Shown here piece by piece: positions 59,572 through 64,000 of a stretch of DNA of 64,000 nucleotides. The notes beneath the pieces were generated by a model. It had not been told where the DNA came from, did no database searches, and saw only the letters and a list, made by a program, of their open reading frames with translations. This stretch comes from Candidatus Heimdallarchaeota archaeon (GTDB lineage Archaea; Asgardarchaeota; Heimdallarchaeia; Heimdallarchaeales; Heimdallarchaeaceae): contig JAEOSZ010000011.1 of NCBI GenBank assembly GCA_016840095.1, positions 27,506-91,505 of the forward strand, in the 5' to 3' direction. The first letter of the stretch is position 1, and each line of letters starts with the position of its first letter. The translations under genes and the position numbers were made by a program.

Positions 59572-61489
59572 TTTAATAAACATTTTTACAAAAGAAAAAT
59601 TGGTAAAGCTAATGAGTAAGCCAGATAAGACACTTAACAAAGCAGTTGTTTACATTTTTATTGGTGTATTAATTATTTCATCAATATTTGCTGTAATGAT
59701 GTTTGGTCCCCGACCTGGCCCTCAAAGCAGTATTTTCAATACAACACTTAGATATTATACAAAGGGAACCCAACAGTTATACTATGGAGACTATGCAAAC
59801 TCTATGATACAAGATATAGGTGATTTAGGAATTGTTGTTACAGATTATTCTATGGAATATGCAATATTCTTAGATAATGTTATTGGATCTAAAGAATTTG
59901 ATATGGCAATTATTGAGCTTGAAGGACTCAATGCACCTCATCTAGAGCTATTGTTTAGAGAAGGTTCAAGTCTAAATGTTTTCAATTTTGCAGATAGTAT
60001 TGATGGTGGTTTAACAAACGAATTTATAGACAATATAACTCGAGAAATGGACTCCTATGAAAGGAAGAATCTTATTTACGACTTACAAGAGCATCTTATG
60101 GATAATGTAGTACCAATGATTCCACTTTTCACTCCAGCAAGAACCTTTGCATACTGGAATAATTTGGAAGGATTTACTAGTAAATGGGGAATATCTGATA
60201 GTTTGCCATATATGTCCTTTGATGGATTACACGATAATCAAGATTCAATCACAGAACTAAAGATCGGAATGGGTGGATGGTATGATCTAAATCCACTTAC
60301 TATGACTGAAGATGGTGAGAAGTTACTTGTTTCACTTATTATGGATAAACTAATTCATTTAGATGAAAAAGGGACTCCTACACACTATGGTTTGATAGAT
60401 AGCTGGGAATATGAAAATGATACTACTCTTCTGCTTCACGTGAGAAACGGTGTAAATTGGCAACCAGATGTAGAAGGAATTTTTCCTAGCGAACAAGTTA
60501 CGATAGATGATGTTATGTTCTCCTTAGATATGATTACAAGCCCGTATGCGAATCTGAATAACGAGATCTTTAAATGGATAGATTCTTATGAAGATCACAA
60601 TAGCACAACTATAGCTGTTTACATAGATTCAGATCCCGCTACTCCAGAGAAGGAACCTTATGCATTCGCACTTGAAGATTTGTCAATTTATCCTTTTCCT
60701 GAGTATTATCTGAATGTTGAAAGCACTATACAAGAAATTGTTAATTCTGCAAGATGGACAAAGTTTAGACAAAATCCATTTGGAACAGGTAAATATACTT
60801 TTAATGCAACAGATAGTCAGGTTGATCTTACTGCATCTTTGAAAAGATTCAACAATTGGCATGGTGTAGGTGTTGATCCAATTAAAATCCCAAATCTAGT
60901 TTTTGAAACAATAGAAGTTCAAACTTATCCTGAATCCTATGCTATGAATCTGGAATTACAAGAAGGAAGTAGAATAGATATAGCTGATTTTGGAAAAAAT
61001 CCAGCGATGGTTTTATCTATTCCTGAAGACAATTTTAATGTAGAATTCAAAGTAGAGAATTCTTTAGTTTTTGTGGCTTTTAATTTGGATAATGATATTT
61101 TTGGGGGAGCAAATAATTATGTCACAACAAGCGAACCTGGAGTTTCGAAAGCACTCGCAATTCGAAAAGCATTATCATATATGATACAAAAAACACTCAT
61201 GAATGATGCATTCCATGAGGGATTGTTTAATATTACAGATACTCCGATTTCGAGATATTTCACTGATTATTATTATCAAAGTGTTACAATATATCCATAC
61301 AGTGTTTCAGAAGCAATTAATTATCTTAATATAGCAGGATTCAATATCTCAACTGAAACAAATGGAACTACTGAAGAGTCTAGTTTTGAAATAGTTAGCT
61401 CATTATTATCTCTAGGACTCTTCACTACAATTATGATTACATTAAGAAAAAGAAAAACGAAAGGTGAATTAAATGAACCGTGTAAATGA
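59525..61489 (+). CDS. Family-5 (OppA/DppA-like) ABC substrate-binding protein, circularly permuted (probable start 59612)
   Basis: DLNP, SWEY, VTIDDVMFS, PFGTGKY, VAFN, IRKALSY, YSVSEAINYLNIAG; the usual C-terminal segment lies at the N-terminus; TM helices at both ends. Confidence 0.8.
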   Translation: MEEKDTFQEISCQRNSLINIFTKEKLVKLMSKPDKTLNKAVVYIFIGVLIISSIFAVMMFGPRPGPQSSIFNTTLRYYTKGTQQLYYGDYANSMIQDIGDLGIVVTDYSMEYAIFLDNVIGSKEFDMAIIELEGLNAPHLELLFREGSSLNVFNFADSIDGGLTNEFIDNITREMDSYERKNLIYDLQEHLMDNVVPMIPLFTPARTFAYWNNLEGFTSKWGISDSLPYMSFDGLHDNQDSITELKIGMGGWYDLNPLTMTEDGEKLLVSLIMDKLIHLDEKGTPTHYGLIDSWEYENDTTLLLHVRNGVNWQPDVEGIFPSEQVTIDDVMFSLDMITSPYANLNNEIFKWIDSYEDHNSTTIAVYIDSDPATPEKEPYAFALEDLSIYPFPEYYLNVESTIQEIVNSARWTKFRQNPFGTGKYTFNATDSQVDLTASLKRFNNWHGVGVDPIKIPNLVFETIEVQTYPESYAMNLELQEGSRIDIADFGKNPAMVLSIPEDNFNVEFKVENSLVFVAFNLDNDIFGGANNYVTTSEPGVSKALAIRKALSYMIQKTLMNDAFHEGLFNITDTPISRYFTDYYYQSVTIYPYSVSEAINYLNIAGFNISTETNGTTEESSFEIVSSLLSLGLFTTIMITLRKRKTKGELNEPCK

Positions 61490-62192
61490 AATAAATAATC
61501 TAAATCTAAAAGGAAAACCTATTATTCAATCTTTTAGTGGAAGTGGAGCAATAGGAACAATATTATCTACATTCCTTGTTAAATCTTTGAAAATGGAGCA
61601 AGTGGCAGTGGTTCATGCTGAAGATTTACCTCCTGTAGCAATAGTAAAGGATGGGTTAATTGAACAACCAATAAGAATATTCCAAAATGATCAAATCGCA
61701 TTGATGTCATGTGAGGTTTCTATACCCTACAGTGCTGTACCAGATTTTATAGAAATGTTAGTTGATTTCTATATTCAAAATGAAGTATCTTATATCGTTC
61801 CTGTAGGAGGATTGCCATCTATAATGACACCTTACGAAGAAATAAACTGCTATGGAATAGCCAGCAATGAAGAAACACTGACTTTTCTTGAAGAGAAAGG
61901 AGTTACATTTCTAGAAGAAGGAGTGATTTATGGAACAGTAGTTCAAACCTTAGAGCTCTGTAACACTAAAGGTTTTGATGCAAATTTCGCATTATTGGTT
62001 GAGTGTGATCCTAACATAACAAGTTATGATTCAACTAAGGTACTGGTTCAGAATCTGGCTAAGATTTTTGAGTTTGAATTTGATGAAGAGGAATTCGATA
62101 ATGTCACAAATATAATTAAATCAAGAATCTTAGAAAGCACAAAAATATTCAGAGAAGACACAATGGATAAAACAAGAGAAAGCCATTTGTAA
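61473..62192 (+). CDS. Proteasome assembly chaperone PAC2-family protein
   Basis: SFSGSGAIGTI, LPPVAIVKDG...PIRIF, VPVGGL, C-terminal HL. Confidence 0.85.
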   Translation: MNRVNEINNLNLKGKPIIQSFSGSGAIGTILSTFLVKSLKMEQVAVVHAEDLPPVAIVKDGLIEQPIRIFQNDQIALMSCEVSIPYSAVPDFIEMLVDFYIQNEVSYIVPVGGLPSIMTPYEEINCYGIASNEETLTFLEEKGVTFLEEGVIYGTVVQTLELCNTKGFDANFALLVECDPNITSYDSTKVLVQNLAKIFEFEFDEEEFDNVTNIIKSRILESTKIFREDTMDKTRESHL

Positions 62193-62296: not shown

Positions 62297-62344
62297 TTTG
62301 TCGGAATAAAACGACTGCCGACAAATTACAAAAAAGTTTAAATA
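62297..62344 (+). promoter_or_regulatory. Archaeal promoter (BRE plus TATA TTTAAATA) preceded by an inverted repeat
   Basis: TTTGTCGG (62297-62304), 13-nt spacer, CCGACAAA (62318-62325); A-rich BRE; TATA at 62337-62344, about 23 nt before the structured region. Confidence 0.6.
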
Positions 62345-62366: not shown

Positions 62367-62731
62367 GGTTAATGGCAGGCTAGGTTAGTGCCCAATTGGA
62401 AGGTCAAAAAGGGACTGCAAACTGAACAGGAAGAGATATCCGATGCTTCTTCCCTCTAAGGGAAACTCAGGGACAAGGTTGAACCCCTTTTTAGATGGTT
62501 TGAACCCCCATTTGGGCTTAGTTAAGACCTCCTAAGCCTGAAATCCCCCAGAACCAGCATGTATTTGCTGGCATCAAACTTCGGTTTGATAAAAAAGGAC
62601 CAGACATCTTCTGTCTGCCAGAAAGGTTCGGTCTTGATGGACCAGATCCTGGAACCCCCAACCAAACCCCCGAAGCGTCGAGTTAGAATTTCCTTCCTGT
62701 TCAGGCAGAAAACCCTTTAGGGTTAACCTTC
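62367..62731 (+). ncRNA. Unclassified structured ncRNA with a long closing helix and BHB-like motif
   Basis: No ORF in the track and more GC-rich than the flanks. 62422-62433 pairs perfectly with 62693-62704; further pairings 62441-62449/62672-62680, 62415-62418/62705-62708 and 62408-62413/62713-62718; at least 7 internal hairpins including cUUCGg. G-U pairs indicate the + strand; promoter upstream, T-tract downstream. Confidence 0.72.
62668..62718 (+). repeat. Direct repeat copy 1 (3' arm of the ncRNA)
   Basis: 48/51 identical to 63449-63499. Confidence 0.95.
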
Positions 62732-62784
62732 ATTTTTTCCTGAAGTTCGAAAGATAAATAAGTAATTCTTACTTAGTTTTCTAG

Positions 62785-63462
62785 ATGAAAGGAGCTCGAA
62801 AACAGATTACATCATGCTGTGTATTTGTATTTATTTTCCTTTCAAGTCACTTACTATTTACTCAAGCTGCACTTTCAGGTTACACTATCTTTTCAAGAAT
62901 ATCATTAATTAACCTCCCACCTACAATTATTTATCGTGAGAATTATCCCAATCAAACTTTATTCGAATTTGATGGTACTTTGGAGATAATCAATAATTAT
63001 ACTCAAACGTTATCTATTACTTCTTCAACGACTTGTTTAGTTTTTTATACAGGAATCTTGTCTTTCGAAAATGAAACCTTATCAGGTACTATACGGGGAC
63101 CTGAACTCTGTGGTAATGCTTTTACTACCCATTATTTTGATCCAGGGATTACTGAAGGATATGTTCGTTTTAAAATATCAGTAAATAATACTCTCAGTTC
63201 TCTTCCTGATGGAAATTTTACTATATGGACTATCTTTGATGATAGTTCTGGAGAACATAGTTACATTCATTATCCTTCAATTATTCAAGTAAATGGTTCA
63301 GATATCAATGTAGTACATACTGGAGCTAATGAAAACTTTACTTTTCCTATTGAAACTTCTTCAACTCCAACAAGTACGATTGTCTTTTCAATGTCTATTC
63401 CATGTTTCTTAGGGATTCTAGTAATTCTTCTAAGGAAGTACGTAAAAACCCCGAAGTGTTGA
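62785..63462 (+). CDS. Secreted Ig-like surface protein with a C-terminal TM anchor
   Basis: Signal-like N-terminus, beta-rich domain with several NxS/T sites and a Cys pair (weakly BsuPI-like), Ser/Thr linker, TM, basic tail; the stop codon lies inside repeat copy 2. Confidence 0.7.
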   Translation: MKGARKQITSCCVFVFIFLSSHLLFTQAALSGYTIFSRISLINLPPTIIYRENYPNQTLFEFDGTLEIINNYTQTLSITSSTTCLVFYTGILSFENETLSGTIRGPELCGNAFTTHYFDPGITEGYVRFKISVNNTLSSLPDGNFTIWTIFDDSSGEHSYIHYPSIIQVNGSDINVVHTGANENFTFPIETSSTPTSTIVFSMSIPCFLGILVILLRKYVKTPKC

Positions 63463-63499
63463 GTTAGAAGTTCCTTCCTGTTCAGGCAGAAAACCCTTT
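63449..63499 (+). repeat. Direct repeat copy 2 of the ncRNA 3' arm
   Basis: 48/51 identical to 62668-62718; followed, like copy 1, by TTAACCTT and a T-tract. Confidence 0.95.
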
Positions 63500-63553
63500 G
63501 TTTAACCTTTTTTTCTTTTAACTATTCAAGCTTCAAAGTAAAAATAGTATGTT

Positions 63554-64000
63554 CTAAAGATTTGTTAGTTTTTCTTGTAGAACATTTCGTACTTCTGATA
63601 TATTCTCTCCAGTTTCATTTGAGACTCTTACAGCTGGCAGAACATTTTCTCCATACTTTCTGAATAAGGACTCCATTTTCTTCTTATCCTTTGTTCTCTG
63701 AAGCCCTTTACTGGTTTCACTGACATCTATATGTGATATAATCGGAAGTATTTCTGCCTTAGGAAATCTTCTGCGTAGGCTTTTTAGCCAATAACGAATC
63801 TTGTTGTCTTTGACGCTTCTACTTATATCAAGAACAATAATGAATATGGTTTCATTTGTCAGTGTAAGATTTTTAATTCTCCTGAAATATCTCTTTTCCC
63901 AGGTACTAGTTACGCAATAAATTAGTCCCTCCTGTTTTCCTTCTTCTAAGGAGATCTCATGAATATCTCCTATTTCTTGCCTAGCAATTTTTCTCTCTGA
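63554..64000 (-). CDS. C-terminal part of a degenerate Roc/small-GTPase-like domain protein (5' end outside the window)
   Basis: Manual translation of a 149-codon open frame: LTNETIFIIVLDIS...IRYWLKSLRRRFPKAEILPIISHID...VSNETGENISEVRNVL*. Confidence 0.65.
   Translation of the reverse strand, partial: SERKIARQEIGDIHEISLEEGKQEGLIYCVTSTWEKRYFRRIKNLTLTNETIFIIVLDISRSVKDNKIRYWLKSLRRRFPKAEILPIISHIDVSETSKGLQRTKDKKKMESLFRKYGENVLPAVRVSNETGENISEVRNVLQEKLTNL

Follow-up and report, generated by a model that had tools for sequence, protein, structure and literature searches.

The 3' end of the gene for a 290-nt circular RNA in a Heimdallarchaeaceae genome is followed by cassettes that are bounded by copies of the gene's own tail. 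We suggest, with a probability of roughly 0.55, that this 3' end is an anchor for an additive capture of DNA, which is independent of an integrase, proceeds through homology and brings in a replacement tail for the RNA gene. The window, by which we mean the whole stretch of 64,000 nt that was analysed, ends where its contig (C45) ends, and the features discussed are collected in Table 1. The PAC2 gene upstream of the RNA gene is 90% identical to that of Ca. Heimdallarchaeota AB_125, which places the source organism close to this archaeon.

Table 1. Features of the RNA locus (positions in the window) and duplicated gene tails in the source assembly, G000 (contig:first copy/second copy).
Feature	Position	Strand	Basis
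PAC2-family gene upstream of the RNA gene (conserved neighbour)	61473..62192	+	PF09754; synteny
BRE/TATA promoter of the RNA gene (A-run then TTTAAATA)	62331..62344	+	sequence; motif kept in nearly all relatives
5' arm: outer helix, 4-bp BHB helix CTGC, AAA bulge (62419-62421), 12-bp closing helix	62408..62433	+	
290-nt circular non-coding RNA	62421..62710	+	fold z, relatives, RNA junction
Proximal, functional 3' arm: BHB half-site, short hairpin, T-tract	62664..62737	+	
Leader of the cargo ORF, promoter-like (TATA-like box 26 nt ahead of ATG, conserved 15-mer ending at ATG)	62747..62784	+	
Cassette 1 cargo: 225-aa probable surface protein, multi-paralog family	62785..63462	+	
Distal copy of 3' arm and T-tract: putative displaced old gene end (attR-like), decaying	63445..63514	+	
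Putative cassette 2 cargo: small-GTPase-like ORF, cut by contig end	63554..64000	-	
Duplicated protein-gene tails	C11:53870/54931; C158:11160/13033, 12214/14153; C163:157554/159235		
Duplicated protein-gene tails	C134:7567/8580; C16:12345/14627; C49:116329/117162		

The region 62408-62718 folds much more strongly than shuffled sequences (z=-5.1), and a DNA search found a match to the RNA in 22 of 24 genomes of the same genus and 26 of 30 of the same family. When 19 RNA genes were aligned, 413 of the 418 cells of the closing helix, the BHB helix and the next helix proved to be paired; compensatory changes were seen, and mismatched cells were absent. The terminal BHB has its 4-bp helix paired in 19/19 genes and 3-nt bulges, its first outer pair being an A-A mismatch (the relaxed form). 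The genome encodes the splicing endonuclease (two PF01974 genes), and in RNA runs X5 and X8, which belong to two metatranscriptome studies, contigs carry the junction GCAG-AAA-CTGAAC, as expected from BHB cleavage and ligation. These contigs, which carry neither strand nor level, cover 62419-62711 only, and one of them (X5 record 19) is identical to 62512-62711. The junction indicates that the 290-nt circle is made with the proximal arm. With a conserved terminal BHB, an encoded endonuclease and a ligated junction, the RNA is a BHB-spliced circular archaeal ncRNA.

No Rfam, tRNA or tmRNA covariance model matched this RNA. It is not RNase P RNA or SRP RNA, since the true RNase P gene is on another contig and the true SRP gene is on contig C59, and an RNase P/MRP-like reading was rejected because, as judged by eye in the alignment, one strand of the candidate pseudoknot varies and has no partner that matches it. 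No paper on the circular RNA or on stacks of arm copies was found in a literature search of incomplete coverage, and we regard the gene as an undescribed Heimdallarchaeaceae RNA. Within the circle (62479-62670) there are repeated GAACCCC-like motifs and a conserved GACCTCCT, which is anti-Shine-Dalgarno-like, and several hairpins are present in some species and missing in others. The 5' side of the gene varies as well: AB_125 and a close relative (L156, L159) have additional genes between PAC2 and the promoter of the RNA gene. In two complete genomes (G027, G030) the DNA search found no RNA gene, and only a distant PAC2 turned up; the RNA may be absent there or too diverged.

The duplication that drew attention to the locus is a direct repeat, 62664-62718 and 63445-63499, with an offset of 781. 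An earlier note, made from the sequence alone, had reported 48 of 51 identical positions at this offset (62668-62718 vs 63449-63499), and both a repeat search and BLAST bear this out. BLAST lengthened the match to 74 columns at 88% identity (62664-62737 vs 63445-63514), T-tract included, and gave the 55-nt core E=2e-17. The 5' arm is an inverted repeat of both 62693-62718 and 63474-63499. The distal copy differs by C62676>T, C62679>T and T62689>G. In the predicted fold C62676 and C62679 are paired with G62445 and G62442, and both pairs become G-U in the distal copy, as had been claimed; the further statement that T62689 is unpaired is uncertain, as it is weakly paired with A62436 in the MFE fold. 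The C>T at 63460 does create the TGA stop of the cassette 1 ORF, whose stop codon lies inside the distal copy.

An assembly artefact was ruled out by Logan contigs of DNA run X1 over both cassette ends and by orthologous cassettes elsewhere. The X1 contigs cover 62701-63138 and 63140-63580 with zero differences, and the second spans the distal copy, which is thus bridged by a second assembly. Run X1 is possibly the source sample, but orthologous cassettes are nonetheless present in other assemblies. A joint in X1 (62730>63516) was considered as an empty allele and dropped; it probably reflects the distal copy of a sister strain, as a loose end in the same run resembles the C-terminus of a homologous ORF. 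The genome-wide BLAST of the repeat that the earlier note had proposed found no further arm copy in the rest of the source assembly. One Logan contig, however, continues for 185 nt past 64000 with 35 nt of arm (joint 64000>62678). A third arm copy, missed in the earlier note, thus probably lies behind the GTPase-like gene, no more than about 185 nt past the end of the contig.

The same note had called for a comparison of relatives, and this revealed both empty and variable sites at the 3' end of the RNA gene. Extra arm copies are present in 13 genomes of the genus, from one to six in each. G001 has six and G004 has five, and between one and three were counted in each of G000, G003, G006, G010, G013, G016, G017, G019, G021, G022 and G024. 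Four genomes of other genera were examined and had no arm copy. The 25 spacings between copies range from 390 to 8774 bp, with a median of 1049 bp. The site is empty in G008 (relative to G013) and in G023 (relative to G001), a relative with nearly identical RNA has different DNA behind the RNA gene, and the order of cassettes differs between G004 and G006.

The polarity of the stacks is apparent from a JGI contig (L169), where a newer cassette stands in front of a gene that is 98% identical to the first cassette gene of G013. The arm before this gene corresponds to the RNA tail of G013 (142/151). The arm after it corresponds, in both tail and flank, to G008, whose site is empty (238/264). Incoming DNA is thus inserted at the RNA gene, and the former gene end is moved away from it. 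The copies decay, their scores mostly declining with distance (57 then 28 bits in G013; 58, 44, 27 and 21 in G004, after a short first copy), and the decay is not strictly monotonic, as the most distal copy of G001 is nearly perfect. Each species' copies resemble its own RNA variant. All copies share their 3' end at the terminator region, and their 5' boundaries lie at about -4, -5, -12, -15, -18, -21, -25, -29 and -40 or more relative to the core, several of them clustering at -12 to -15; that of the G022 copy is at about -130.

Given this polarity, the proximal arm of the window would be the replacement tail. The distal copy reads as an insertion scar, the displaced old tail of the RNA gene, which agrees with the second suggestion of the earlier note, a cassette scar at the RNA 3' end: there are empty, single-cassette and multi-cassette alleles, the stacks are polar, and the ancestral flank is attached to the distal copy. 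The detail that the scar is an att-like integrase site is probably incorrect, since the 5' boundary is variable and the pattern recurs at the tails of unrelated genes. In G010, a contig that has no RNA gene (C27; L048:874-2868) carries a lone, decayed arm copy with a TnpB/Cas12f-like gene behind it.

The cargo protein of cassette 1 has a hydrophobic N-terminus, a C-terminal TM segment and a basic tail, and had no match in Pfam or NCBIfam. Its homologs occur in 21 of 30 family genomes, mostly away from the RNA gene, and in the ORF tree the members of one clade, from G000, G013, L165 and L169, all have good arms on both sides. A metagenome search with the ORF gave no match; in the ESM Atlas its leads were all under 0.9, and a 124-aa cargo protein led to unnamed clusters. 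The leader, with its TATA-like box and pre-ATG motif, is also found in free-standing, arm-free paralogs, which indicates that the cassette was captured as DNA, probably with its own promoter, and the leader in the window may function as such. The GTPase-like ORF had weak Roc/Ras matches, below the cut-off, and was not found in 30 family genomes.

Among the proteins encoded in the stacks are surface proteins of the beta-helix type, a SecY paralog and RING, SH3, HTH, TPR and metallo-beta-lactamase-fold proteins. Cargo can be on either strand; many cassettes have antisense genes and some are multi-kilobase and multi-gene. The SecY paralog (PF00344, E=1e-50) is cargo in G004 (L036:9797-11080), similar ORFs (L047:1139-2440 and L052:8890-10188) bring it to three genomes in all, and its identity with a gene of G000 (contig C63) is 46-48%. 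Single-gene cassettes with eukaryote-like domains include a RING-finger protein in G017 (L045:4644-5123) and an SH3 protein in G006 (L047:4164-4517). PHROGs returned nothing for ten cargo proteins. No PF00589 or PF00239 gene was found at the RNA locus in 31 genomes, and there was no recombinase among about 40 cargo proteins.

The layout is not confined to the RNA gene. When G000 was scanned for local direct repeats, seven protein-coding genes were found in which the tail is followed by cargo and then by a 46-92 bp copy of the tail; judged by eye from their sequences, one of them encodes the small subunit of RNA polymerase and another a ferredoxin. The copies end near stop codons. In the five tails that were scored, there are about 20 synonymous vs 12 non-synonymous codon differences inside the repeats, and the synonymous share expected is 16-19% for random single changes, or perhaps a third with transition bias. 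This synonymous excess fits two tails that were once functional alleles. No tail copy was found in G000 at about 40 tRNA calls, RNase P or SRP; its rRNA genes are unassembled. In the relatives, the 23S tail is duplicated in 1 of 13. In that case, the 23S processing-stem tail recurs as three partial copies downstream of the 23S rRNA gene (L145; G013 C12), flanking genes for a TnpB-like, a DUF4379 and a 203-aa protein.

The mechanism that we favour would begin with DNA from a relative in which cargo adjoins a portion of the tail of the RNA gene. This DNA could integrate by a single crossover within the common tail, either as a fragment closed into a circle or through strand invasion with re-entry upstream. 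The incoming tail would make the RNA gene whole again, and the old one would end up behind the cargo. The 3' end of each copy would then be set where homology stops, at the terminator, and its 5' end by the break point of the fragment. Repeated events would build a polar stack, in which the repeats could allow unit loss, gain and reshuffling of cassettes while the distal copies decay. The enzymes could be those of RadA-type recombination and end joining; the circular intermediate and the route by which DNA enters the cell are, similarly, conjectural parts of the scheme. Anchors of 25-50 bp, of which there are many here, are short for RadA-type recombination. E. coli offers a laboratory precedent, in which linear DNA closes into a circle that integrates through one crossover and leaves duplications of 109-950 bp (PMC3240628). 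No donor, circle or uptake system was seen, with no DprA in G000 (89% complete), the arm sequence was not found in IMG/VR, and no joint of an excised circle (attP) occurs in the contigs of two DNA runs, contigs being a form of data that drops rare forms.

The variable 5' boundaries also bear on a recombinase acting in trans, which we consider unlikely. Accretion would then be site-specific, with the arm as the attB core and the cassettes as cis-mobilisable relics, and the candidate enzymes are conserved serine recombinases of 243 and 249 aa, perhaps guided by an acidic protein with a recombinase DNA-binding domain. The geometry does resemble tRNA and ssrA stacks (PMC3146451), PF00239 genes are present in 29 of 31 genomes, and several boundaries group at -12 to -15. 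The acidic-protein gene is present in 18 of 24 genomes of the genus and 0 of 6 of other genera, stacks having been seen only in the genus, and its orthologs in G001 and G004 score just above the PF07508 cut-off. However, the boundaries span -4 to about -130, and unrelated gene tails have been treated in the same way. No PF00589 match adjoins the RNA gene in the 31 genomes, and there is none anywhere in the stack-bearing G004, G006, G013 and G016. The acidic protein has no catalytic domain, is located elsewhere in G005, G007 and G017, and is present in G008, where the site is empty.

The sole PF00589 match in G000 is a fragment at the end of an unrelated contig (L054, C106 end), the origin of which is uncertain in an assembly with 7.8% contamination. 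The two serine recombinases stand alone on contigs C163 and C31 of G000, without mobile-element context (L154:5627-6358 and L155:5184-5933), and PF00239 genes of similar size occur across the family. The acidic protein of G000 is hyperacidic, with a weak C-terminal PF07508 domain (contig C1; L077:275-1204), and its orthologs (L035:2539-3372 and L036:8549-9523) are usually at the far edge of the stack.

The tail duplications at G013 23S rRNA, around DUF4379 and TnpB-like genes, and the G010 arm copy that precedes a TnpB-like gene could point instead to a selfish nuclease, a homing endonuclease or TnpB-like protein that cuts the tail of the RNA gene and brings its replacement, later cargo arriving via the repeats. 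Behind fungal mitochondrial genes there are C-terminal duplications with homing-endonuclease ORFs flanking them (PMC6279837). We regard this as quite improbable, because HNH, LAGLIDADG, GIY-YIG and DUF4379 had no match in about 40 cargo and stack-adjacent proteins, nor by motif scan, in a search in which several cargo families remain without annotation, and the proximal arm shows no consistent 'immune' change. The serine recombinases and the acidic protein might also form a host-encoded capture system dedicated to the genus, acting at transcript 3' ends, with circular mRNA made from some cassettes; we hold this to be a long shot. If true, small promoter-bearing genes would be inserted by it most often at the circular-RNA gene.

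A bolder proposal of the earlier note was that the distal arm is kept because read-through transcripts are spliced with it into a circular mRNA for the surface protein. The size given for this circle, 1071 nt (62421-63491), is arithmetically correct. In favour of the proposal, the distal copy retains an intact BHB half-site, the genome has splicing endonuclease genes, and the ORF clade noted above always lies between good arms. In ViennaRNA, the read-through transcript pairs with the distal arm at 0.72-0.92 and with the proximal arm at 0.07-0.27, a difference of 1-2 kcal/mol that is within model error. The molecule can thus fold on a read-through transcript, but the idea gained no positive support, and a selected circular mRNA is very unlikely. 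All three changes in the distal copy are at bases that are invariant in 19 functional genes. At paired positions of the other copies, 19 of 32 changes break pairing and 13 keep it, and the probability of two pairing-keeping changes in a row is about 0.17; the changes there include 9 C>T and 14 G>A. As the arm is C-rich, its decay by C>T yields preserved pairing automatically.

The gene itself also argues against the circular mRNA. Its promoter-like leader is common to arm-free paralogs, and many cassettes are antisense or multi-kilobase. The stop codon falls at different arm positions in G000 and G013, each time through a C>T, and in L165 it comes shortly ahead of the arm, a pattern that fusion of a gene end to a scar would produce. 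Among the RNA contigs only the 290-nt circle appears, and the proximal helix would form 781 nt earlier in transcription. The two RNA runs have no cover over the ORF, but the populations sampled may lack the cassette, and this gap is not taken as a sign that the ORF is silent. A circular mRNA from this cassette is unlikely, and occasional by-product circles are more likely than a selected one; a true circular mRNA in an archaeon, if real, would be a far greater surprise. Retrocopying of a 5'-truncated precursor RNA, which would give copies that all finish at the terminator and begin at differing points, can practically be set aside, as there is no RVT_1 in G000 (89% complete), the cargo holds TATA boxes, antisense genes and multi-gene blocks, the copies are invariably tandem to their source, and those of protein genes stop near the stop codon.

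Integrons are polar arrays of mostly single-gene cassettes separated by repeats, and the stacks described here are likewise. They differ in that there is no IntI, the repeats are tails of host genes, and the cargo has its own promoter-like leader and can be on either strand. No intI was found next to the array, the upstream gene being PAC2 in nearly all genomes, and an integron was ruled out on these grounds: absent intI, cassettes in both orientations and a leader of their own.

Capture through homology, the reading we prefer, finds a parallel in the single-crossover integration of circularised linear DNA and in homology-facilitated illegitimate recombination, where one homologous patch likewise gives a duplication of variable length (PMC3240628). 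The E. coli case is a laboratory observation, whereas here the duplications, of about 30-150 bp, are natural, repeated and stacked, and the intermediate is conjectural. Homing-endonuclease ORFs of fungal mitochondria also leave an intact gene, inserted ORFs and a displaced tail copy (PMC6279837), but no homing endonuclease was found in the stacks here. As for the host gene, the circular SRP RNA of Thermoproteus tenax is, in the same way, a stand-alone archaeal RNA ring with a tRNA splicing endonuclease site (PMC4731332), the difference being that the RNA described here is not SRP RNA.

The additive flexible islands of Ca. Actinomarinales share small cassettes at RNA genes, a partial-gene repeat at the cassette end, exchange between lineages and envelope-related cargo (PMC7771536). 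Their targets are bacterial tRNA genes, whereas here they are an archaeal, BHB-processed circular RNA and the tails of protein genes. In the tandem ssrA islands of Dehalococcoides, direct repeats of the RNA 3' end delimit islands stacked behind a single-copy RNA gene, and some islands lack integration genes; cis-mobilisable elements and accretion are part of that system (PMC3146451). Those islands have a fixed 20-bp repeat with one crossover, and 16 of them carry a serine-integrase module; the cassettes here have no recombinase, a median length of 1 kb and a circular-RNA target, and the 5' end of the repeat varies by more than 100 nt. Like islands at att sites of RNA genes, the locus has a restored target with its 3' end repeated at the far boundary, empty and filled alleles and entry beside the gene, and it departs from them in the cognate integrase and the fixed crossover position.

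To summarise, the locus behaves like the additive tRNA and ssrA islands (PMC3146451, PMC7771536), yet without a cognate integrase or a fixed crossover. It illustrates how accessory genes are gained without recognisable mobile elements in Asgard archaea, which are close to eukaryotes, and with empty, single and stacked alleles among close relatives and sharp junctions it is a compact test system. What is new here is the polarity, the variable boundaries and the genome-wide pattern of duplicated tails.
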